Source of the DNA: a virus
Taxonomy: Duplodnaviria; Heunggongvirae; Uroviricota; Caudoviricetes
Virus record (IMG/VR): IMGVR_UViG_2718217897_000002
Strand: one strand, 5' to 3'
DNA length: 11,367 nt
The translations under genes were made by a program, and so were the position numbers. The notes beneath the pieces were generated by a model that saw only the letters and a program-made list of their open reading frames with translations, was not told the origin of the DNA and searched no databases. Shown here piece by piece: positions 1-11,367 of this stretch (its first letter is position 1; every line of letters begins with the position of its first letter).

Positions 1-192
1 TTAGTTGCTACGCGATTCGGCTATACGTTGATCGATCCAGTCATCGATCTCGCTTTCAATAAAAGCTATTGCGCGAGAACCAATCTTGACTGATTGGGGG
101 AATTGTCCTCGGCTCATCAGAGCATATACCCACGCCTTGCTATAGCCAGTGCGTTTCAAAACGTCAGATAGCCGAATCAGCGACTTTTTCAT
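1..192 (-). CDS. alpA: AlpA-family HTH regulator of prophages/integrative islands (excisionase-like), 63 aa
   Basis: Complete ORF (ATG at 192, TAA at 3-1). Small basic protein with the AlpA pattern (LIRLSDVLKRTGYSKAWVYALMSRGQFP...IAFIESEIDDWI). Lies beside an integrase fragment, as in P4/CP4-57-type islands. Family assigned from recalled homology. Confidence 0.75.
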   Translation of the reverse strand: MKKSLIRLSDVLKRTGYSKAWVYALMSRGQFPQSVKIGSRAIAFIESEIDDWIDQRIAESRSN

Positions 193-293
193 ATCTACCT
201 CGTAATACGTTGCTTGACTATGTGAGATAGTAAATCATTGTTTTTTTAAGTTTTCTGTGAATTTGGAGAAAAAGTTTTCGGGAAAGGAATTGT

Positions 294-335
294 CCCAAAT
301 TGGGCGTTTGTTTTCGTCTCTCCAGCCAATTTGGG
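294..335. promoter_or_regulatory. Pair of near-palindromic boxes CCCAAATTGGG (294-304) and CCAATTTGGG (326-335) upstream of alpA; candidate operator
   Basis: Seen directly: the two boxes are reverse complements of each other, each nearly self-palindromic, about 21 bp apart, in the 156-bp gap between the orf246 stop and the alpA start. Confidence 0.25.
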
Positions 336-348
336 AACATCAATTATT

Positions 349-1089
349 TTACTTGGTTATCTTTCCCAAAAAATTGGGTGCGTGCCGCTGCAAAGTCTTT
401 TTTAGAAGCGTTCTTAGATTATCCATGGTCATGCCAGCATCATTGTATTCTTCACTGTACTTTGCGATGTTGTTTGCTGCTTTCTCGCACACCGCGGACT
501 GGTTGAGCTTTCCATTCTTTCTAACGTCCTCGCTGGATTCATATAAAGCAATCGCCAGCCCAGCAATCATTTTCCAGGCGGTGTTTTTGCCGCGCCAGTC
601 ACTGGGGAGCGACCCACTTTCTGTTTCCTCTGCTATCGGTTCATCAATGTTGTGATCTTCCAGTTCTGGGAAGAAGCTCACAAGCTCGGACCGCTTGAAA
701 TAAAACGAATCGTAAGACCCATACCAATCATCCTCATCATCGTGATATAAAAAGTCTTCTCCTTTCCTAACGTTGAAAGTCCCTTCTTCCCCCGGTATCG
801 GGCTCTCCCTGTATTCATGCCCCATAGCCAGAAGACCTAAAAACTCCACACACTGCTTTTCAAAGTCTTCATTAGTCGTAAAACCAGATACCCAATCGAA
901 CTGATAAAAGCCCAGCCCCCCTAAAGTATCTGGTTTAGTCTTGCTCAATCTGTAGTTACTTAAGATAGCGGCAGCTATCATTCTTTCATTTTCATTGTTT
1001 AGTCTTGCCAGTTCGCTGATCAGATTACCAAACCAGATTTTATCTTCTGACTCGTTATAAAACGCATCTAGTCCTGTCATCTTAGTCAC
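349..1089 (-). CDS. Hypothetical acidic protein, 246 aa, between the integrase fragment and alpA
   Basis: Long ORF with GTG start at 1089 preceded by SD GGAAGGAGA (6-nt spacer). Overlaps the integrase-fragment stop by 8 bp. No motif I recognise; Asp/Glu-rich central region. Confidence 0.6.
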   Translation of the reverse strand: MTKMTGLDAFYNESEDKIWFGNLISELARLNNENERMIAAAILSNYRLSKTKPDTLGGLGFYQFDWVSGFTTNEDFEKQCVEFLGLLAMGHEYRESPIPGEEGTFNVRKGEDFLYHDDEDDWYGSYDSFYFKRSELVSFFPELEDHNIDEPIAEETESGSLPSDWRGKNTAWKMIAGLAIALYESSEDVRKNGKLNQSAVCEKAANNIAKYSEEYNDAGMTMDNLRTLLKKTLQRHAPNFLGKITK

Positions 1090-1813
1090 GGCGTGTTCTC
1101 CTTCCGAACTCGTAAGGGCTTATGTGTATTTCTCGATTGGCGTCCAGATAATCTGCCCACCATTGAAGCATTAGTTTGCGCTCTTCTAAGTAATCAGCCT
1201 TGTGCTTGTAGGCTCTTTTAACGTCTTTATATTCTTTGTGGCTCATCTGGCGCTCTACTGCGTCCTCCTGCCACAAACCGGACTCCATCAGGGAACTACA
1301 GGCTGTGGCACGGAATCCATGTCCAGTTACGTCCTCTTGCGTGTTATAGCCCATTAAGCGTAATGCCTTGTTTACCGTGTTTTCACTCATCACGCCTTTG
1401 GTGTTTCTTTCATTCGGAAACACAACATCGTAGCTTCCGCTTAGTTCTCTCAACTGCTTTACAATAGAAACAGCCTGACGGCTAAGAAGCACGATATGTT
1501 CGTCTTTTCCCGTCTTTGTGCCACGGGTGGAAAACCTCACACCATCGATAGGCTCTCTTTTTTTAGGGATAATCCACTCAGCCCGATCAAGGTCAAACTC
1601 TTTCCAACGGGCAAACCTTAACTCGCTTGAACGAACAAAGGTCAACATGGTTAGCTCAATGGCAAGGCGGGTAAGAGGATTACCTTTAAAGCTGCCCAAT
1701 CGAGTGAAAAAGTCTGGTAAATCTCTGGGATGTAGTGCGGCATGATGCTTAGTTTCATATTGCATTAGCCGATATTCCTCAGAGCTTGGAAGAATTGCTG
1801 ATGCATATGGCAC
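1082..1813 (-). pseudogene. 5'-truncated P4-type tyrosine integrase (C-terminal catalytic domain only, 243 codons)
   Basis: Translation aligns with the C-terminal half of P4-family integrases (HGFRATACS...KRAYKHKADYLEERKLMLQWWADYLD, parallel to the IntS C-terminus at 6680-7837). The frame is closed by a stop only 8 codons upstream of the first possible start (1838-1840), and no N-terminal arm/core-binding domain is encoded upstream in any frame. Confidence 0.7.
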
Positions 1814-1829
1814 TCTTGCAAGAGCAGCT

Positions 1830-2270
1830 GTGAAACCTCAGCAGTATATTGAAAGAACAGGGAGAACTGCCAATGTACTACGCGATCTTGATGCTGGTTT
1901 ATCCAACGTTACATCAACAGTGTTAAATGCAATTGCCAACTCAACATCAGGTGCCATTGTTGGTGGAGCAGGAGGCGGGGGCGTTGCTGGCGCTGCCGCA
2001 GGTGCTTTAATTGGCGCCGGGTTAAAAGGCGCTGTATCTAAAATTGCCACCACACGTAGTGGTCGGTATGCGATAGAGAAAGCAGTTCAGGAAGCAACTA
2101 AAGCAGTAAGAGCAGGCGGAAGCAAAGAAGCATTAGTGGCGGCTGAACGCAGATTTATGGCAAATAAAGCTGCCGTAAAAGCAATACGTGATACAGTCGG
2201 AAACGAAGAGTTCAATCGCTTAGCGAGGGCTGGCATTGTAGCGTCGCTAAGCGGAATAGCACAGGAGTAA
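1830..2270 (+). CDS. Gly/Ala-rich glycine-zipper protein (146 aa); possibly the 3' remnant of a larger gene
   Basis: ORF with GTG start at the deletion junction. Central segment AIVGGAGGGGVAGAAAGALIGAGLKGAV is a glycine-zipper-like hydrophobic stretch flanked by Ala/Lys/Arg-rich helices. More GC-rich than the neighbouring cassette. Minus-strand ORFs here are Pro/Ala-rich antisense artefacts. Function unknown. Confidence 0.4.
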   Translation: MKPQQYIERTGRTANVLRDLDAGLSNVTSTVLNAIANSTSGAIVGGAGGGGVAGAAAGALIGAGLKGAVSKIATTRSGRYAIEKAVQEATKAVRAGGSKEALVAAERRFMANKAAVKAIRDTVGNEEFNRLARAGIVASLSGIAQE

Positions 2271-2594
2271 TTAATCATCCATGGATGGATTGAGCTTATC
2301 TCGTGTTGATGTGGCGATTTGTCCTACATTTCTAAGCCAAGATTTCAAATCCTTGATATTGTCATTGATTTCATGAATATCTTCTTTTTTTAATCTGTTA
2401 ACATTATTTTCAATAATTTCAATGGATTGCTCAATATCAGATATAGTGAATGATAGTTTGTTCTTCTCATCTTTTATTGAGTTTTTAAGTGCTTCGTTCT
2501 CAGTCTTGAGGTCAGATATCTTTTGTTTTAAAGATGCCAGTTGGTACTGAACCACAATGAGTGCGATAGCTATCACGATAACTGTTGTATACAC
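2271..2594 (-). CDS. N-terminally membrane-anchored coiled-coil protein (about 107 aa)
   Basis: GTG at 2594 is preceded on the minus strand by a strong SD AAGGAGG (plus 2602-2608) with a 5-nt spacer. Product begins with a hydrophobic helix (YTTVIVIAIALIVVQY) followed by a heptad-like Lys/Glu/Asn-rich region. The longer ORF reaching 2810 would overlap the divergent gene and has no SD, so the short start is preferred. Confidence 0.5.
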   Translation of the reverse strand: MYTTVIVIAIALIVVQYQLASLKQKISDLKTENEALKNSIKDEKNKLSFTISDIEQSIEIIENNVNRLKKEDIHEINDNIKDLKSWLRNVGQIATSTRDKLNPSMDD

Positions 2595-3590: not shown

Positions 3591-3714
3591 AATCGTTTTG
3601 TTCATGTTGCATGGTTTTTAAATGAATAGAAGGTTATTTTTCAAAACAATTGCATCTTTGTCTGCAGTCATTCCGTTTTCTTCAATATCTAAATCTTCAA
3701 ACAGGATGACTAAT

Positions 3715-6300
3715 ATGCCTGATATAACCCCAAATGTTGTGATAGGTATGCCATCGCAACTCTTCACAATGGCTAGCTCTTTTAAAACCGTAGCAAATGG
3801 AAAAATTTATATCGGTAAGATTGACACAGATCCGGTAAATCCAGAAAACCAGATTCCAGTATATCTGGAACGAGAAGATGGTACTTATGTTCAGGTGCCA
3901 CAGCCAATCGTTATCAATGCTGCTGGATACCCGGTATACAACGGACAGATTTCCAAATTCGTTACCGTGCAAGGCCATTCTATGGCTGTTTACGATGCAT
4001 ATGGTACGCAGCAGTTCTATTTTCCGAATGTGCTTAAGTACGATCCTGATCAATTAAGACAACAATTAGAAGACCCGGAAGGTGCTAAAAAATATCATGA
4101 ATTGCAGATGTCTCGGTGGCGTGATGACGCTGACCCTCGCGGATGGGGAGCAAAAGGTGATGGCATCACCGATGACACATTATCTTTTCAAGAGTTAGAA
4201 AAACAAATCACAGGAAGGATTGTTGATCTAAGGGGTAATACATATATAACAGATCAAGTTTATGATGGAAATAAGTATATAAATGGCTATTTTCGCACAG
4301 AGAATCGATTACTGCCAGATGCTGATTTTACTGAAAAAAGAATACAAACTATAAAAAAGGGGATGTATACAGGTTTCAGATCTTCTACTCCTAATCATGT
4401 TAAGTCAGGGTTGCGACTGGCAACAATTAAAAATACTGTCATACAAGGTGCTGTTCTTGATTATTATGACAGTGTTCTTTATTGCTTGGTAAATGTGAGT
4501 GGCAGCGTTAGTTCTGGTGATGAAGTTAATAAAGTTGTTGCTTATAATTGGTTTGGGAATGAAGAGTTAACTCCTCTTTGGGAGACTAAAGGTAGTAGAG
4601 AATTAGGACATCAATGTCTTGGTTTAACCATAGGGCGCGTTGGTTTTCGTAACACAAGAGGCCAGTTACAGATATGGGGGTTAGCTGGCACAACTAAAGG
4701 AGAGGATCGCGCAAAGTATATCACCAGATTCACCCCTACTGATGGTGGTGAAATTGAACCAGAGTTTTTTCTCATATGGGAAGATGGTTACGAGAATCAG
4801 GTAAATGTTTTATGCACCGACCCTATGAGTCGATGGCTGATTACTACAGCAAAACGTTATGTTGGCCCAGGTGAGAGCCCATCAACACCAGATCAAATTC
4901 GCTATTATGTAAAAGTATTTGATACCAGTAAATTTATTAACCCGCAGGCGTACAATTACGATTATCGTAATGAAGCAACTTTTGAATTTGAAATTGCTGA
5001 TTTTGTGAGGGATATGCAAACAGTTGCGTGTGACGGTACTGCTATTTATTTTTGTCAGGCTGGATCTGCATATTCTTCAACCAGAAAATATTTGCATCAG
5101 TACACACTTGATGGTGTTTATCTTGGGGTGCAGCAAATACAGGCAGGTGCAGGAAGAGCCTATGAAATAGCAGATCCAAATGATACCGGAACGCCAGATG
5201 TTAGCAATCTTACATATGAACCAGAAGCAATGTTTTTCCGTATGATTGCAGGTGGGTATGACCTTGTAATGGGGAATACAAATGGCATACCAGATGGTGA
5301 TAGTGGGCGAGAAACTACATTTTACACATTAATGCCACAACAGGTAATGCATGTAAAAACAACATCAAGAAATCAGCCTGGTATTATCATTGATTCAACC
5401 CATGATATTGTCACTAACTCTGGTTTGTTAAGCCTTGGTAAAATTATGCCTGGTGGTGAAGTCATAGAGCAGGCAAACCTTGATGACAAAGGATTCACTG
5501 TTTCGAGGGCAACAACACAAGCCGCCCGTTATGATGCAAAGAATACGTTACGGAATGTAACTTTTCATGTTAGTGAAAAAGGTGATACCGGTATTTATGA
5601 CTTTACCAATGCTCAATGGATATTTAAATCTCCCTTATCAACATCTTCATATTCGTATATCGGTCAGTCAGCGGAGGTTAATGGCTATATAAGTGCTAAT
5701 AAAGATAATACGTCATCATGTGGGACATCATCTAAACGGTGGACGCAAGTATATGCAACTAATGGGGCAATAAATACTTCAGACCAGACATTGAAAACAA
5801 AGCCACTGACAGTAGAGCAACTTTCAGAAATCATGGAGGTGGATCAGGATGCAATTCTTGACGCATGGGGTGACGTAAATATTATCGTTTACCAGTGGTT
5901 GTCCGATATTAAGGCTAAAGGTTCGGATACTGCTCGTTGGCATTTCGGAGCAATTGCACAGCAGGTAAGAGATGCGTTTCTTGCAAAGGGGATAGATGGA
6001 ACAAGATTTGGCTTGCTATGTCATGATAAATGGGATGATGAGTACCAACCTGTAATGGCACAGCGCAAGGTGTCATTTATAGCTAAATCCCCTGAAGGAG
6101 AAGACATCGTTCACGAATACTTTGAAGAATACGATACTGGTGACACGGAACTGGTTGTACATGCTGGTGAGCGTTGGGGATTGCGTCCAGATGAATGTTT
6201 GTGGTTGGAGGCTGCATTCCAGCGAAGAAGGTGTGAACGTATTGAATCTCGTTTAACAGAGCTTGAATTGATAATTAAAAAAGCAAAAGAGATAGAGTAG
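3715..6300 (+). CDS. Phage tailspike protein: P22/Sf6-type N-terminal head-binding domain, central beta-helix (pectate-lyase-like) receptor-binding/depolymerase domain, C-terminal intramolecular chaperone (peptidase S74-like) domain
   Basis: N-terminus [18 protein letters not shown]...[27 protein letters not shown]...[15 protein letters not shown]...NVLKYDPDQ closely matches the P22/Sf6 tailspike particle-binding domain as I recall it. [13 protein letters not shown] (4141-4179) is the usual start of a right-handed beta-helix. C-terminal SDQTLK...[12 protein letters not shown] resembles the auto-cleaving chaperone domain of endosialidase and T5 L-shaped fibres. Start chosen at the ATG with AGGA 8 nt upstream; the ORF stays open back to 3622, with 3706 as an alternative start. 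Confidence 0.9.
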
Positions 6301-6588
6301 ATGGATAAAACCCCAATTCATCACGCACTTTGCGCTGTGGTCGCACAGGTACTGGTTGGTCTTTTTACCGGAAACTGGGCTTACGGAGCGATAGCCGGTT
6401 GTACATTCTTCATCGCTCGTGAACATACCCAGGCAGAATATCGCTGGATTGAAATGTTCGGACATGGCAAGCGAATGAATATGCCGTGGTGGGGCGGTTT
6501 TGATCCGCGCGCTTGGGATGTGGCAAGCCTGATGGATTTTTCTTTCCCAATTATCGGATGCTTATTGGTATGGATTCTTGCATCGTAG
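6301..6588 (+). CDS. Small integral membrane protein (95 aa), co-transcribed with the tailspike gene; unknown function
   Basis: ATG at 6301 directly follows the tailspike TAG (6298-6300). Hydrophobic N-terminal segment (ALCAVVAQVLVGLFTGNWAYGAIAGCTFFIA) and C-terminal segment (FPIIGCLLVWILAS) with a Trp-rich loop between. Sits where P22-like phages carry O-antigen modification genes. Confidence 0.55.
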   Translation: MDKTPIHHALCAVVAQVLVGLFTGNWAYGAIAGCTFFIAREHTQAEYRWIEMFGHGKRMNMPWWGGFDPRAWDVASLMDFSFPIIGCLLVWILAS

Positions 6589-6679: not shown

Positions 6680-7837
6680 TCACTCCACCTTTTCATCAAG
6701 CCAATCCGCCCACCACTGCATCATTTCTCTGCGCTTATCGAGATACTGAGCGTGGTTGTAAATTCCACGCACAGAACCGCCGTTGGCATGTGCCAGTTGC
6801 ACTTCAATAGCATCAGCAGGCCATTCGTGCTCGTTCATAATCGTGCTGAATTCATGCCTGAATCCGTGACCGCTTTCCAGACCTTCATAGCCGATTTGTT
6901 TGATCACAAGCAATACCGCGTTCTCGCAGATTGGCTTCTTCTTATCGTTGCGCCCGGAAAAAACAAACTCTGATACTGGTTTAGTGATTGAGCTTAGTGT
7001 AGTGAGAAGTTCAACCACCTGGTCTGACATCGGGACAACATGAATTTTGCGTCCCTTCATCACACTGGCGTCGATGGTGATAATCCTGTTTTCAAAATCG
7101 ACGTTCTTCCATAGCATGGAACGAAGCTCTTTTGTTCTTAGGGCTGTGTAGCGTAAAATTTTGGTAGCAATGAGCGATACGATACTTCCTGAAAATGTTG
7201 CAAGTGCTTTGTTGAATGCCGGGATCTGGTCGGCAGGTAAAAATGGGAAGTTCTTCTTGCGGTATCCCTTCATGGCGTCAGCAAGGTCAGGTGCCGGGTT
7301 ATATTTAGCCCTTCCGGTGACAATAGCGTAACGGAAAACCTCGCCGCATCTTCTGCGGGCTTTGTTGGCTCGCTCCATTGCACCGCGATCTTCAAATCTG
7401 CGGATTACTTCCAGAAGTTGCATCGGCTCAATATCCTGAATTTCAAGGGCGCCGATGATAGGTAAAATGTCGTCATCAAACATTTTGGCAAGTTCATTTG
7501 CATAGCCTACTGACCAGACTTGCTTCTTGTGCTCGTACCATTCCTTGTAAATCGCACAAAAGGAATTGTTGTTAGACGAAGCCTTTTTCGCCTTTACCGG
7601 ATCGATGCCAACCGAGATGTCTTTCCTCGCAGTCCATGCTTTATCCCTTGCCTCCTGCAAAGTCATAAGCGGATATTTTCCGACGGTCAGGATTTTCTCC
7701 TTACCGTCAATCTTGTAGCGAAGCTGCCAGACCTTTTTTCCGGATACAGGGACATAAAGGTACAGGCCATTACCATCGAGAAGGCGGTATGGTTTTTCTT
7801 TCGGCTTTGCTGCTTCAATCTGCTTAACGGTGAGCAT
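6680..7837 (-). CDS. intS: P4-type tyrosine integrase, IntS-like (385 aa)
   Basis: Translation from the internal ATG (MLTVKQIEAAKPKEKPYRLLDGNGLYLYVPVSGKK...) through ...HAQYLDKRREMMQWWADWLDEKVE matches prophage integrase IntS as I recall it. Gene starts 161 bp downstream of the argW 3' end in the same orientation, the classic tRNA-int arrangement. The ORF track extends 12 codons further to a GTG at 7873. Confidence 0.9.
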   Translation of the reverse strand: MLTVKQIEAAKPKEKPYRLLDGNGLYLYVPVSGKKVWQLRYKIDGKEKILTVGKYPLMTLQEARDKAWTARKDISVGIDPVKAKKASSNNNSFCAIYKEWYEHKKQVWSVGYANELAKMFDDDILPIIGALEIQDIEPMQLLEVIRRFEDRGAMERANKARRRCGEVFRYAIVTGRAKYNPAPDLADAMKGYRKKNFPFLPADQIPAFNKALATFSGSIVSLIATKILRYTALRTKELRSMLWKNVDFENRIITIDASVMKGRKIHVVPMSDQVVELLTTLSSITKPVSEFVFSGRNDKKKPICENAVLLVIKQIGYEGLESGHGFRHEFSTIMNEHEWPADAIEVQLAHANGGSVRGIYNHAQYLDKRREMMQWWADWLDEKVE

Positions 7838-7998
7838 GGGTAAAAATCCGGTGGGTAAAATTATTTTATCCACTTTTTACCCGTCATGGTGTGCGGCTGT
7901 CAACGATCTGACGCGAACCATGCCGAACTGTGAATCTAAGGAAGGCTTGATATTCAAGGGATTTTGCGGACTGGTACGGATGGGAGCGAACTGATAAA

Positions 7999-8073
7999 TG
8001 GTGTCCCCTGCAGGAATCGAACCTGCAATTAGCCCTTAGGAGGGGCTCGTTATATCCATTTAACTAAGAGGAC
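7999..8073 (-). tRNA. argW: tRNA-Arg (anticodon CCU)
   Basis: Minus-strand 75-nt sequence GTCCTCTTAGTTAAATGGATATAACGAGCCCCTCCTAAGGGCTAATTGCAGGTTCGATTCCTGCAGGGGACACCA folds as a cloverleaf: 7-bp acceptor stem, D stem GTTA/TAAC, anticodon stem AGCCC/GGGCT with loop CTCCTAA (anticodon CCT), T stem GCAGG/CCTGC with loop TTCGATT, encoded CCA. Confidence 0.9.
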
Positions 8074-8084
8074 AATGCGGCATG

Positions 8085-8113
8085 AGTATACCCGCTAATG
8101 GAGTGCGGGGTAA
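8085..8113 (-). promoter_or_regulatory. Candidate argW promoter
   Basis: On the minus strand: TTACCC (plus 8108-8113), 17-bp spacer, TATACT (plus 8085-8090), then a GC-rich discriminator (CATGCCGC) typical of stable-RNA promoters, 11 nt before the mature tRNA 5' end. Confidence 0.35.
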
Positions 8114-8148
8114 GTACGCTGCCGCTCGATTGCTTAAACCCTCGCCAT

Positions 8149-9081
8149 TTATGCCGGGTTTTTATAATTTTTCTTAATGTTTTCCGCACGTTCTGCTTTT
8201 TGGCGTGCTTCTGCTTTACGCTTATTGCTCATGTCGTTACGAATCTGTGCATGACTCATTAACGCGAAGATAAAGGTGCCGCCGCAGATGTTCCCCGCTA
8301 AAGTAGGTAGTGCGAAGGGCCAGATGAAATCGCTCCAGTGCAGCGTGCCGTTAAACACCAGATAGAGGATTTCAACAGAACCGACCACGATATGGGTGGT
8401 GTCACCCAGGGCAATAAGCCAGGTCATCAATATAATCACCACAATCTTTGCCGCACCCGCTGCAGGAAACATCCAAACCATAGTGGCGATCAGCCAGCCG
8501 GAAATGATCGCGTTGGCAAACATCTCGCTGGGGGTGTTCTTCATCACATCCATGCCGATTTTGACAAATGCATCGCGAGTTTCTTCATTGAAGATAGGCA
8601 TATATTCAAATGCCCACGCCGCAATACCTGTCCCGAGAATATTACCCAGCAGCACGACGCCCCATAACCGTATAAGTAAGCCGACGTTGCTCATTGTCGG
8701 TTTTTGCATGACGGGTAGTACCGCAGTCACGGTATTTTCGGTAAATAATTGCTGGCGGGCCATAATGACGATAATAAAACCAAAGGTATAACCGAGATTC
8801 TCCAGCAAGAAGCTGCCCGGCACACCTTCCAGTTCGACATGAAATATCCCTTTTGCCAGTAACGAAGCGCCCATCGACAGACCCGCCGCAATGGCTGACC
8901 ACAGTAGCGCCATTGCGTCGCGTTCCAGCTCTTTTTCACCATCCTGGCGGATATGCTCATGAATTGCCATCGCCCGGGAGGGGAGTCGGTCTTCATCTAT
9001 TTCTATTTTTTTGCCGCGCTCTTTTTCTTCGCTCTCAACTTCAATTTCGTCGCTGTGTTGATCAATTTTGTCGTTGTCCAT
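8149..9081 (-). CDS. yfdC: Formate/nitrite transporter (FNT) family inner-membrane protein YfdC, 310 aa
   Basis: Acidic N-terminal tail followed by multiple hydrophobic helices. Sequence and position (between argW and mlaA) match E. coli YfdC as I recall it. Confidence 0.85.
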   Translation of the reverse strand: MDNDKIDQHSDEIEVESEEKERGKKIEIDEDRLPSRAMAIHEHIRQDGEKELERDAMALLWSAIAAGLSMGASLLAKGIFHVELEGVPGSFLLENLGYTFGFIIVIMARQQLFTENTVTAVLPVMQKPTMSNVGLLIRLWGVVLLGNILGTGIAAWAFEYMPIFNEETRDAFVKIGMDVMKNTPSEMFANAIISGWLIATMVWMFPAAGAAKIVVIILMTWLIALGDTTHIVVGSVEILYLVFNGTLHWSDFIWPFALPTLAGNICGGTFIFALMSHAQIRNDMSNKRKAEARQKAERAENIKKNYKNPA

Positions 9082-9262
9082 GGTCTCTTCTCTTGAATTA
9101 GCACGTATAGCTAAAGCGTAGCGGCTTTTTTGCTCGCAACTGACGGGAGTTACTCTGAAAATGTAGAAAAGGCTGCGTTTGCCTTTTTCTGTTTCTATAA
9201 AATCAAGTAGCCTACAGGGCGGCGATTACCAGGCTATGATCAAATCAGCAAATCAGGGCGTC

Positions 9263-9290
9263 TGGACATCAGTTGACGTGCTGTTACAAT
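9263..9290 (+). promoter_or_regulatory. Candidate sigma70 promoter for mlaA with extended -10
   Basis: TGGACA (9263-9268), 16-bp spacer, TGtTACAAT (TG at 9282-9283, hexamer 9285-9290), about 85 bp upstream of the mlaA ATG. Confidence 0.35.
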
Positions 9291-9374
9291 CGCCCACACC
9301 TAAACAGGCGGATACGGTATCGTTCCGTCATGGATGGCAAACTGCATAAGCCATAAAAAAACAGGGAGACATTT

Positions 9375-10130
9375 ATGAAGCTTCGCCTGTCGGCGCTTGC
9401 TCTGGGAACTACGCTTCTGGTGGGGTGTGCGAGTTCCGGTACAGATCAGCAAGGGCGTTCTGACCCGTTAGAAGGGTTCAACCGCACCATGTACAACTTC
9501 AACTTCAATGTATTAGACCCGTATATTGTTCGACCGGTCGCTGTCGCCTGGCGTGATTATGTTCCGCAACCGGCGCGTAACGGTTTGAGCAACTTTACTG
9601 GCAACCTTGAAGAACCTGCGGTGATGGTTAACTACTTCTTGCAGGGCGACCCTTATCAGGGGATGGTCCACTTTACCCGCTTTTTCCTGAACACCATTTT
9701 GGGGATGGGCGGTTTTATTGATGTTGCAGGGATGGCGAACCCGAAACTGCAACGGACTGAACCTCACCGCTTCGGTAGTACGCTTGGTCATTATGGCGTG
9801 GGTTATGGGCCTTACGTCCAGTTACCGTTCTACGGTAGCTTCACGCTGCGTGATGACGGTGGTGATATGGCGGATGGTCTTTACCCGGTTCTTTCCTGGC
9901 TGACCTGGCCGATGTCTGTGGGTAAATGGACGCTTGAAGGGATAGAAACTCGTGCGCAGTTGTTGGATTCCGATGGTCTGCTGCGTCAGTCGTCCGATCC
10001 TTATATTATGGTGCGCGAAGCGTACTTCCAGCGTCATGATTTCATCGCTAATGGCGGCGAACTCAAACCGCAGGAAAATCCGAACGCACAAGCGATTCAG
10101 GATGATTTAAAAGATATTGATTCTGAATAA
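9375..10130 (+). CDS. mlaA: Outer-membrane lipoprotein MlaA (VacJ), phospholipid-asymmetry maintenance, 251 aa
   Basis: SD GGGAGA 6 nt before the ATG. Signal peptide with lipobox LLVGC. Sequence matches MlaA/VacJ as I recall it. Confidence 0.9.
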   Translation: MKLRLSALALGTTLLVGCASSGTDQQGRSDPLEGFNRTMYNFNFNVLDPYIVRPVAVAWRDYVPQPARNGLSNFTGNLEEPAVMVNYFLQGDPYQGMVHFTRFFLNTILGMGGFIDVAGMANPKLQRTEPHRFGSTLGHYGVGYGPYVQLPFYGSFTLRDDGGDMADGLYPVLSWLTWPMSVGKWTLEGIETRAQLLDSDGLLRQSSDPYIMVREAYFQRHDFIANGGELKPQENPNAQAIQDDLKDIDSE

Positions 10131-10144
10131 GAAACAAATAAAAA

Positions 10145-10172
10145 AGGTGAGTCGCAAAACTCACCTTTTTTG
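10145..10172. terminator. Bidirectional rho-independent terminator after mlaA and the convergent interrupted gene
   Basis: AAAAA-AGGTGAGT-cgcaaa-ACTCACCT-TTTTTTG: 8-bp stem 10145-10152 / 10159-10166, flanked by an A-run upstream and a T-run downstream. Confidence 0.6.
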
Positions 10173-10311
10173 TTGTTATCCCTCAATTACCACAAGTAAA
10201 AGGAGATAAACCGACAATGACCCGGACGTAATGATGTAAAAATACTGATGTTCGTCACTGACTATTTCCGATATTCAGGCGTTGAAAAATCAAAAAACTG
10301 GAAAAATAATT

Positions 10312-10614
10312 TTAAATATCATCAAAATTAACACCTGGCGCAGATAGTTGATTAATTTCATTTTGATATTTCGCCTGGCGATTTTGAAGTCTTTTTTCAA
10401 CGTTATCTTCGAGATCCTTAAAGTCTTTGTATTTATTTTCAGGATGGTCAACGTCAACTTTGTTAGCGAATAAATTAGAAATTATTTCTTTTACATTATC
10501 GCGTCTAAATTTTGCATCGTCCACTTGAAAATCATATCTTATTGCTCGACCATAACGTTTAAAAACGTCGTTTGGTTCTCTCAGTCTTTCCCCGTTGAGC
10601 TCGTTTACAACCTG
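10312..10614 (-). pseudogene. 3' fragment of a gene interrupted by IS1 (position matches yfdF of E. coli K-12; identity unverified)
   Basis: The minus-strand frame is open from the IS1 left end (10614) to the stop at 10312-10314 (101 codons), with the only upstream stop lying inside the IS1 inverted repeat. The ORF-track start at 10524 is an internal GTG. Lys/Asn/Asp-rich, AT-rich coding sequence. Confidence 0.5.
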
Positions 10615-10669
10615 GGTGATGCTGCCAACTTACTGATTTAGTGTATGATGGTGTTTTTGAGGTGCTCCA

Positions 10670-10945
10670 GTGGCTTCTGTTTCTATCAGCTGTCCCTCCT
10701 GTTCAGCTACTGACGGGGTGGTGCGTAACGGCAAAAGCACCGCCGGACATCAGCGCTATCTCTGCTCTCACTGCCGTAAAACATGGCAACTGCAGTTCAC
10801 TTACACCGCTTCTCAACCCGGTACGCACCAGAAAATCATTGATATGGCCATGAATGGCGTTGGATGCCGGGCAACTGCCCGCATTATGGGCGTTGGCCTC
10901 AACACGATTTTACGTCACTTAAAAAACTCAGGCCGCAGTCGGTAA
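10670..10945 (+). CDS. insA: IS1 InsA (transposition repressor / N-terminal part of the InsAB' transposase), 91 aa
   Basis: GTG start. Product contains the zinc-finger CPSC...CSHC and matches IS1 InsA. Confidence 0.9.
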
Positions 10946-11367
10946 CCTCGCGCATACAGCCGGGCAGTGACGTCATCGTCTGCGCGGAAATGGACGAACA
11001 GTGGGGCTATGTCGGGGCTAAATCGCGCCAGCGCTGGCTGTTTTACGCGTATGACAGGCTCCGGAAGACGGTTGTTGCGCACGTATTCGGTGAACGCACT
11101 ATGGCGACGCTGGGGCGTCTTATGAGCCTGCTGTCACCCTTTGACGTGGTGATATGGATGACGGATGGCTGGCCGCTGTATGAATCCCGCCTGAAGGGAA
11201 AGCTGCACGTAATCAGCAAGCGATATACGCAGCGAATTGAGCGGCATAACCTGAATCTGAGGCAGCACCTGGCACGGCTGGGACGGAAGTCGCTGTCGTT
11301 CTCAAAATCGGTGGAGCTGCATGACAAAGTCATCGGGCATTATCTGAACATAAAACACTATCAATAA
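10864..11367 (+). CDS. insB: IS1 InsB reading frame (catalytic part of the InsAB' transposase made by -1 frameshifting), 167 aa
   Basis: Product matches IS1 InsB. Frame is -1 relative to insA and overlaps its 3' end. The stop codon is the last three bases of the window. Confidence 0.9.
10921..10927 (+). other. IS1 programmed -1 ribosomal frameshift motif (A6C)
   Basis: AAAAAAC lies in the insA/insB overlap, where IS1 is known to shift frame to make InsAB'. Confidence 0.6.

Follow-up and report, generated by a model that had tools for sequence, protein, structure and literature searches.

A glycine-zipper ORF at the argW locus of E. coli is a 3′ fragment of a P22 gene-16-family ejection gene

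An 11,367-nt stretch of DNA recorded as a tailed phage in IMG/VR (IMGVR_UViG_2718217897_000002; hereafter the window) carries, ahead of a tailspike gene, an ORF of striking composition. We asked whether this ORF encodes a complete membrane-active protein or is what remains of a larger gene. The ORF (1830..2270, plus strand) has a GTG start and a stop codon at 2268-2270 and encodes 146 aa, of which 20.5% are Ala and 13.7% Gly. A first-pass annotation, made from the letters alone, had described it as compositionally distinct from the AT-rich cassette downstream, and GC content is indeed 0.49-0.52 over the ORF versus 0.33 at 2251-2550. It had also placed the ORF upstream of the tailspike in the same orientation, and the tailspike ORF (3622-6300), identified by its Head_binding domain, lies as described. 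From these features the ORF had been proposed to be the 3′ remnant of a P22-like ejection (DNA-transfer) gene, with a stand-alone membrane-active protein as the alternative. The analysis below favours the first of these: the ORF is very probably an inert pseudogene consisting of the last 169 codons of a gene-16-type ejection gene from a CUS-3/epsilon34-type P22-like prophage.

The ORF is the 3′ end of a gene-16-family ejection gene

The ORF product matches PHROG 770, 'DNA transfer protein', at profile positions 558-666 of 668 (E 4.1e-23), which is the C-terminal end of a long family, and precomputed Pfam tables assign PF26808 (Phage_P22_gp16) to an identical protein. Local Pfam and NCBIfam scans of both the fragment and full-length gp16 proteins gave no relevant match; these local libraries are without a gp16 model, and P22 gp16 itself scores nothing there. 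The family assignment is accordingly based on PHROGs, the precomputed Pfam tables and direct identity. A match of the fragment to CmpA (17 bits against a cut-off of 300) was set aside as compositional noise.

Direct identity is extensive. Megablast against complete E. coli genomes matched 577 records, the best of which annotate the matched feature as 'DNA transfer protein' or 'P22-gp16 family phage DNA ejection protein'. Compared with the intact gene 16 of E. coli A3 (nt 1620-2427, running past the end of the gene), the window is 99.75% identical over 808 nt, and DNA identity of the remnant to the 3′ end of this intact 708-codon gene is 99.1-99.8% across the comparisons made. As delimited by the A3 identity and the PHROG 770 match, the remnant occupies 1763..2270 on the plus strand and comprises codons 540-708 of 708, plus the stop codon. 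Only two differences from the A3 copy fall within the gene, both synonymous, and there is no frameshift. This lack of decay fits a recent deletion, yet is no proof that the fragment is unselected. Full-length members of the family are about 600-890 aa long with this module at their C terminus, and the window holds codons 540-708 only. The ORF is thus a fragment of a P22 gp16-family member and not a functional member. It is also already known in kind, being a fragment of a known family that is nearly identical to annotated genes.

At the protein level, the fragment is 97% identical to gp16 of CUS-3, 65% identical to gp16 of HK620 and about 20% identical to gp16 of P22. All tblastn matches were confined to gene-16 homologues, in epsilon34, CUS-3, SEN22, three related coliphages, HK620 and Sodalis phiSG1. 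A comparison with the ejection proteins of P22-like phages had been suggested as the check on the remnant proposal. It came out positive for gp16 of the CUS-3/epsilon34/HK620 type, whereas P22 gp16 shows only the ∼20% identity given above and is without the Gly/Ala block; overall, PHROG 770, PF26808, the DNA identity to A3 and the protein identities to CUS-3 and HK620 all bear out the proposed origin.

The closest known counterparts are CUS-3 gene 16, epsilon34 gene 13 and the A3 gene (WP_187197779.1), whose last 169 codons match the window. They share with it the same Gly/Ala block, the same near-invariant motif TRSGRYAIEKAVQEATKAV and the same stop codon abutting hkcB. What sets the window apart from them is a deletion of the N-terminal 539 codons, of the gp7 and gp20 genes and of the late promoter; with these went the native start and 77% of the protein. 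HK620 gene 16 has the same C-terminal module, a Gly-rich hydrophobic block and hkcB and hkcC downstream, but it is a diverged allele with megablast-level DNA similarity to the window only from ∼2058 onward. P22 gp16 (609 aa) and Sf6 gp13 belong to the same PHROG/Pfam family, and their genes likewise follow genes 7 and 20 and precede the immI region and the tailspike gene. The difference from P22 gp16 is larger: BLASTP aligns a 37-residue patch only (E 0.003), tblastn with the window region at a threshold of 1e-5 did not find it, and its highest 19-residue hydropathy, 1.18, lies in its N-terminal part.

Gene order, as far as it is preserved, agrees with this identification. In E. coli A3, a gp7-like protein (230 aa), a gp20-like protein (491 aa) and the 708-aa DNA transfer protein are followed by a convergent 107-aa gene, small genes and the tailspike, and the order in HK620 and CUS-3 is the same. 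The window keeps the downstream half of this arrangement (hkcB, hkcC, an orf59a homologue and the tailspike), and the upstream half is replaced by an integrase remnant from a genomic island.

The convergent gene following the ORF is a homologue of hkcB of HK620 and CUS-3 (2271..2594, minus strand; PHROG 5962, E 1.7e-58). It encodes 107 aa, corresponding to residues 73-179 of the long ORF, rather than the 179-aa ORF given by a mechanical scan; the 107-aa version is the one annotated next to gene 16 in A3, CUS-3 and HK620. The protein has an N-terminal hydrophobic helix followed by a coiled coil. The first-pass annotation had pointed out that the two stop codons abut, leaving no room for a terminator, and the ORF's stop at 2268-2270 does touch the minus-strand ORF beginning at 2271. 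The same stop-to-stop contact is found in the intact phages (6508/6509 in A3, 5504/5505 in CUS-3 and 5513/5514 in HK620), so the abutting stops are their normal arrangement and not a product of the deletion. In P22, late transcription must run on through the region after gene 16 to reach the tailspike gene, and the lack of a terminator at the abutting stops is consistent with this. The first terminator-like hairpin in the window is bidirectional, lies at 2979-2998 and is the counterpart of a terminator that HK620 has annotated downstream of hkcC.

At the place and in the orientation of hkcB, 22 nt away from gene 16, P22 carries sieA (PMC2629481). Because it sits directly after gene 16, where P22 has this superinfection-exclusion gene, the hkcB homologue is, by analogy, a candidate for a prophage-expressed membrane protein acting on incoming ejection proteins. 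PADLOC on the fragment and its small neighbours, and Pfam on the hkcB homologue, gave nothing beyond coiled-coil noise, which in the PADLOC scan fell on the hkcB homologue.

The deletion junction and the history of the argW locus

The left end of the remnant was placed by a three-way comparison of the window with the island in E. coli AST19 and the prophage in A3, for which megablast set limits of 1..1771 and of 1763 onward, respectively. Identity to the island runs through 1767, or to 1771 with one mismatch, and identity to the prophage begins at 1763. As these two stretches overlap, the deletion lies within the shared 5-bp microhomology CATTA (1763..1767), which connects an island integrase gene to gene 16. 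The junction is therefore 63-67 nt upstream of the GTG at 1830, and the ORF does not begin exactly at the deletion junction, as had been stated. Its reading frame is open from 1746, with no ATG, GTG or TTG between there and 1830, and the ORF starts at 1830 because this GTG is the first start codon 3′ of the junction; in the parent gene it is an internal Val codon (563 of 708). An unrelated deletion in another E. coli, which joins dsdC′ to gene 16 at nt 1534, gives rise to an identical 146-aa gene call. The boundary of the ORF is hence set by the position of a start codon and not by the junction.

A junction of this kind might be an assembly chimera, and it was absent from complete RefSeq E. 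coli genomes and, in an exact-match scan, from species-representative genomes. However, the same junction is present in seven contigs from independent ENA and Logan samples, and its partners share only 5 bp, too little for a graph mis-join. Three of these junction loci that we fetched are 99.98-100% identical to the window and share its neighbours. We consider a chimera extremely improbable.

The junction also bears on whether the ORF could be a complete, independent small glycine-zipper membrane gene that merely resembles the end of gene 16. Gene callers report it as a 146-aa gene in contigs from metagenomes and Logan, and it carries a glycine-zipper motif, both of which would suit such a gene. 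Yet the match to gene 16 at the DNA level reaches 67 nt 5′ of the GTG and breaks off at the very point where identity to the island integrase gene sets in, and in every full-length homologue (670-885 aa) the module is C-terminal. A profile search of 1.84 billion representatives for a free-standing small gene found none: among its 20 hits, the long proteins carry the module at the C terminus, and the short ones are either cut off by a contig end, fused by a deletion or frameshifted. The stand-alone membrane-active protein offered as the alternative to a remnant thus finds no counterpart, the module occurring only at the C terminus of 670-885-aa proteins or in fragments. A word-indexed protein search had returned only relatives of 82-248 aa and no full-length gp16, a length distribution that should not be taken as biological; the intact 708-aa gene 16 is common in E. 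coli, and the profile search recovered members of 672-885 aa. An independent gene therefore deserves next to no credence, and the ORF is best described as the end of gene 16.

The sequence on the other side of the junction belongs to an island at argW. Positions 1-1771 are 99.9% identical to the island in AST19, which is also found in 45 other genomes. In AST19, it comprises an AlpA-like regulator, a 246-aa protein and a 428-aa tyrosine integrase and adjoins tRNA-Arg(CCT), yfdC and mlaA; it lies directly beside argW, with no P22-like prophage. In the window, the AlpA-like regulator (1-192) and the 246-aa protein, which has no family match (349-1089), are both on the minus strand and are followed by the 3′ remnant of the integrase gene (1082..1767, minus strand), which encodes the C-terminal catalytic part (Pfam Phage_integrase, E 2.4e-17). 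About 601 nt of the 5′ end of this gene are missing; intact in AST19, it measures 1287 nt and lies beside tRNA-Arg. The left argW element resembles a satellite- or phage-like integrative element. Related contigs carry, in addition, a rolling-circle Rep-like protein in the island (weak PF23343 match), and the AST19 island also has an HNH endonuclease and a Pin-like recombinase.

On the right, 7998-11367 (tRNA-Arg, yfdC, mlaA and IS1) is 99.94% identical to AST19, with the tRNA-Arg gene at 7999-8073 and an IS1 copy (insA/insB frames; 10670-11367, plus strand) at the edge of the window. Next to IS1 is a truncated AT-rich ORF (about 10290-10530, minus strand). AST19 has the same IS1 arrangement, and its annotation lists the neighbours as a disrupted yfdF and a hypothetical gene that is incomplete. 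Between the remnant and the tRNA gene lie the tailspike gene (3622-6300, plus strand), whose product combines a P22 head-binding N terminus with a C-terminal Peptidase_S74 intramolecular-chaperone domain, a conserved 95-aa gene directly after it (6301-6588, plus strand; PHROG 1443) and a P22-like/CUS-3-type integrase gene (6680-7873). Gene callers start the tailspike at ∼3715 (861 aa), and the protein also shows an endosialidase N-terminal extension below the Pfam cut-off. The CUS-3 prophage map reads attL, int, tailspike and so on to gene 16, so the integrase and the tailspike belong to the same end of a CUS-3-type prophage; alignment of the window to CUS-3 resumes at coordinate 30777 of 40207.

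The simplest history of the locus, as we infer it, has three steps. A small island with the AlpA-like regulator, the protein of 246 aa and the integrase would have come first, occupying argW, the tRNA-Arg(CCT) gene; next, a P22-like phage would have integrated into argW beside the island; and one illegitimate recombination at CATTA, from the island integrase gene into gene 16, would have removed about 31 kb of prophage along with the hybrid att site and the ∼601 nt of the island integrase 5′ end. On the prophage side, this would have left only the end of gene 16 together with hkcB, hkcC, the orf59a homologue, the tailspike gene, the 95-codon gene and the phage integrase gene beside argW.

Glycine zipper, helical domain and prospects of expression

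The compositional signature of the ORF comes from a Gly/Ala block, SGAIVGGAGGGGVAGAAAGALIGAGLKGA (1947..2033, plus strand; ORF residues 40-68), in which 12 of the 29 residues are Gly and 9 are Ala. ORF residues 41-62 contain six overlapping GxxxG and seven [GAS]xxxGxxx[GAS] motifs. Gly residues at fragment positions 63, 67, 71-73, 76, 80 and 84 are invariant or nearly so in homologues, and since these homologues are only 44-66% identical, the spacing of the glycines is more than chance. SGAIVGGAGGGGVAGAAAGALIGAGLKGA thus shows the repeated small-xxx-small pattern in conserved register that characterizes a glycine zipper. Its best Kyte-Doolittle mean over 19 residues is 1.52, the maximum of the 708-aa parent but below the usual cut-off of 1.6; the same block is also the hydropathy peak of HK620 gp16, at 1.65. 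Ala, Lys, Arg and Glu abound in the flanks, which are predicted to be helical, in agreement with the earlier description of a Gly/Ala zipper between helices.

The block is followed by a helical domain with the near-invariant motif (2022..2258, plus strand), delimited by AlphaFold2 and by invariant alignment columns. In the AlphaFold2 monomer, which was built from an 18-sequence alignment and has a mean pLDDT of 54.5, with confidence limited to the last ∼80 residues, this domain is all helical with pLDDT 70-91 at fragment residues about 87-165; the zipper has pLDDT 24-25 and no helix. A Foldseek search of the model against the PDB gave nothing at E ≤ 0.001. A sequence search of the PDB with the full-length parent returned coronavirus S2 heptad repeats at a non-significant E of 0.07, which we took as chance.

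In P22, the virion ejects gp16, which then builds the portion of the DNA-delivery channel that crosses the cytoplasmic membrane (bioRxiv 10.64898/2026.09.03.749273). With its virion genes deleted, the prophage remnant in the window could no longer package or eject such a protein. Given this literature, the segment kept in the window would in the intact phage be the C-terminal module of a protein that completes the channel across the cytoplasmic membrane. The zipper is the likeliest candidate for the membrane-inserting or helix-packing element of gp16 of the CUS-3/HK620/epsilon34 type, and the helices that follow it probably serve in assembly or in contacting gp20.

Such features raise the question of whether the fragment might be expressed from fortuitous signals, either as a small membrane-active protein or as a truncated gp16 with a dominant-negative effect, spoiling the channels that incoming P22-like phages assemble and so causing superinfection exclusion as a by-product. 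The ORF is intact, is preceded by a weak Shine-Dalgarno-like AAGAG and is predicted by gene callers, and it keeps both the most hydrophobic segment of its parent and the confidently folded helical domain. In P22, escape from SieA exclusion arises through mutations in the C-terminal region of gp16 (PMC10461980), and gp16 can, according to the P22 literature, act in trans outside the cytoplasm. Truncated 3′ ends of gene 16 are, moreover, kept in many E. coli genomes.

Other observations speak against such a product. The search for a Shine-Dalgarno sequence that the first-pass annotation called for turned up, by reading the sequence, a weak AAGAG (1820..1824, plus strand) 5 nt before the GTG and no other translation signal; in the intact gene this AAGAG is coding sequence, and its position here is fortuitous. 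As for a transcription start, promoter signal upstream of the ORF was not above chance: four promoter-like sites were found against 6.0 expected from shuffled sequence, none of them within 250 nt upstream on the plus strand. The start is the internal Val codon of the parent, no signal peptide is evident that would take the product to the periplasmic side of the membrane, the site of gp16 action, and there is no stand-alone family. Other remnants of the region are frameshifted or randomly fused to unrelated sequence, which argues against selection for a product. Judged from these signals, the ORF is probably not expressed, and we regard an active fragment as unlikely, leaving an inert remnant as the preferred reading.

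A recurrent breakpoint within gene 16

Remnants of the same kind occur elsewhere. In E. coli, for instance in MB06232 and 2017.18.04CC, PGAP annotates pseudogenes as 'DNA transfer protein, incomplete; missing N-terminus', and these too are 3′ ends of gene 16 beside hkcB and the tailspike gene in a decayed P22-like prophage. They differ from the window in where they end: their junctions fall at a recurrent site equivalent to window position 1900, whereas the remnant in the window ends 137 nt further upstream, with another partner.

The recurrent site is a TA dinucleotide (1900..1901) that is intact in the window, with native sequence on both sides, in the context GGTT/TATCCAACGT. It first appears at the protein level, where homology search returns short proteins with unrelated N termini that all switch to gp16 at the same residue, immediately before SNVTSTVLNAIAN. 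At the DNA level, seven different left partners are joined exactly at the start of TATCCAACGT in other E. coli (CUS-3 gene 16 nt 1793, window 1900). They are dsdA (locus L009, junction L009:6152), codon 40 of cro (L011/L012, junction L011:6119), a small gene after the coat gene (L013/L014, junction L013:6116), a site near ea8.5 (L015, junction L015:660), gene 16 itself at nt 427 (L010/L038, junction L010:5981) and at nt 1474 (L066, junction L066:5001), and a spacer next to a thrW-type integrase (L065, junction L065:5001). In all six partners whose undeleted sequence was recovered, the TA at the crossover is native. The other deletion junctions in these decayed prophages fall at unremarkable positions and do not recur.

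One of these fusions has acquired a name of its own. At L011:6001-6486 (P0004), the first 40 codons of a 434-type cro are fused in frame to the gene-16 C-terminal module, and the GenBank name 'helix-turn-helix transcriptional regulator' for this protein is an annotation artefact of the chimeric ORF.

Several explanations for the shared end-point were tried and rejected. A DNA hairpin is not indicated, as the fold at the site is weaker than that of shuffled sequences (z = +2.06), and no terminal inverted repeat of a transposon end was found there. Selection for an in-frame product does not account for the site, two of the junctions being out of frame (deletions of 1369 and 320 nt), nor does a mosaic boundary in intact genes, as native sequence precedes the site in 48 of 49 IMG/VR loci. 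An assembly artefact is contradicted by partners that share 2-4 nt only and by two cases in complete genomes. Matches to dif (XerD arm only), Hin/Gin half-sites, P22 pac, Chi and the integron core, compared by eye only, were too weak or in the wrong register.

A fixed, nucleotide-precise end together with a shared TA suggests a site-specific break or a recombinase. On this footing, the TA at 1900-1901 could be a specific cleavage or recombination site and may betray a site-specific nuclease or recombinase, so far undescribed, that acts on P22-like prophages, a reading we put forward tentatively and with more doubt than confidence. The site might be cut by a homing-type endonuclease that leaves ends of 2 nt or recombined by an enzyme that resembles serine recombinases and has TA as its core; a strong gyrase site is a further candidate. 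The junction in the window, at 1763-1767, is a different event from this breakpoint.

That an ORF of striking composition turns out to be a pseudogene fragment is in itself of very little significance, although the true end-points of the deletion clarify the history of the argW locus. Of wider bearing is the conserved glycine zipper, the only candidate membrane segment in gp16 of the CUS-3/HK620/epsilon34 type; it is absent from P22 gp16, the experimental model, and this difference is relevant to the construction of the channel through the cytoplasmic membrane. Should the TA breakpoint be the work of an enzyme, it would imply a specific process by which P22-like prophages are taken apart and gene-16 remnants repeatedly generated.
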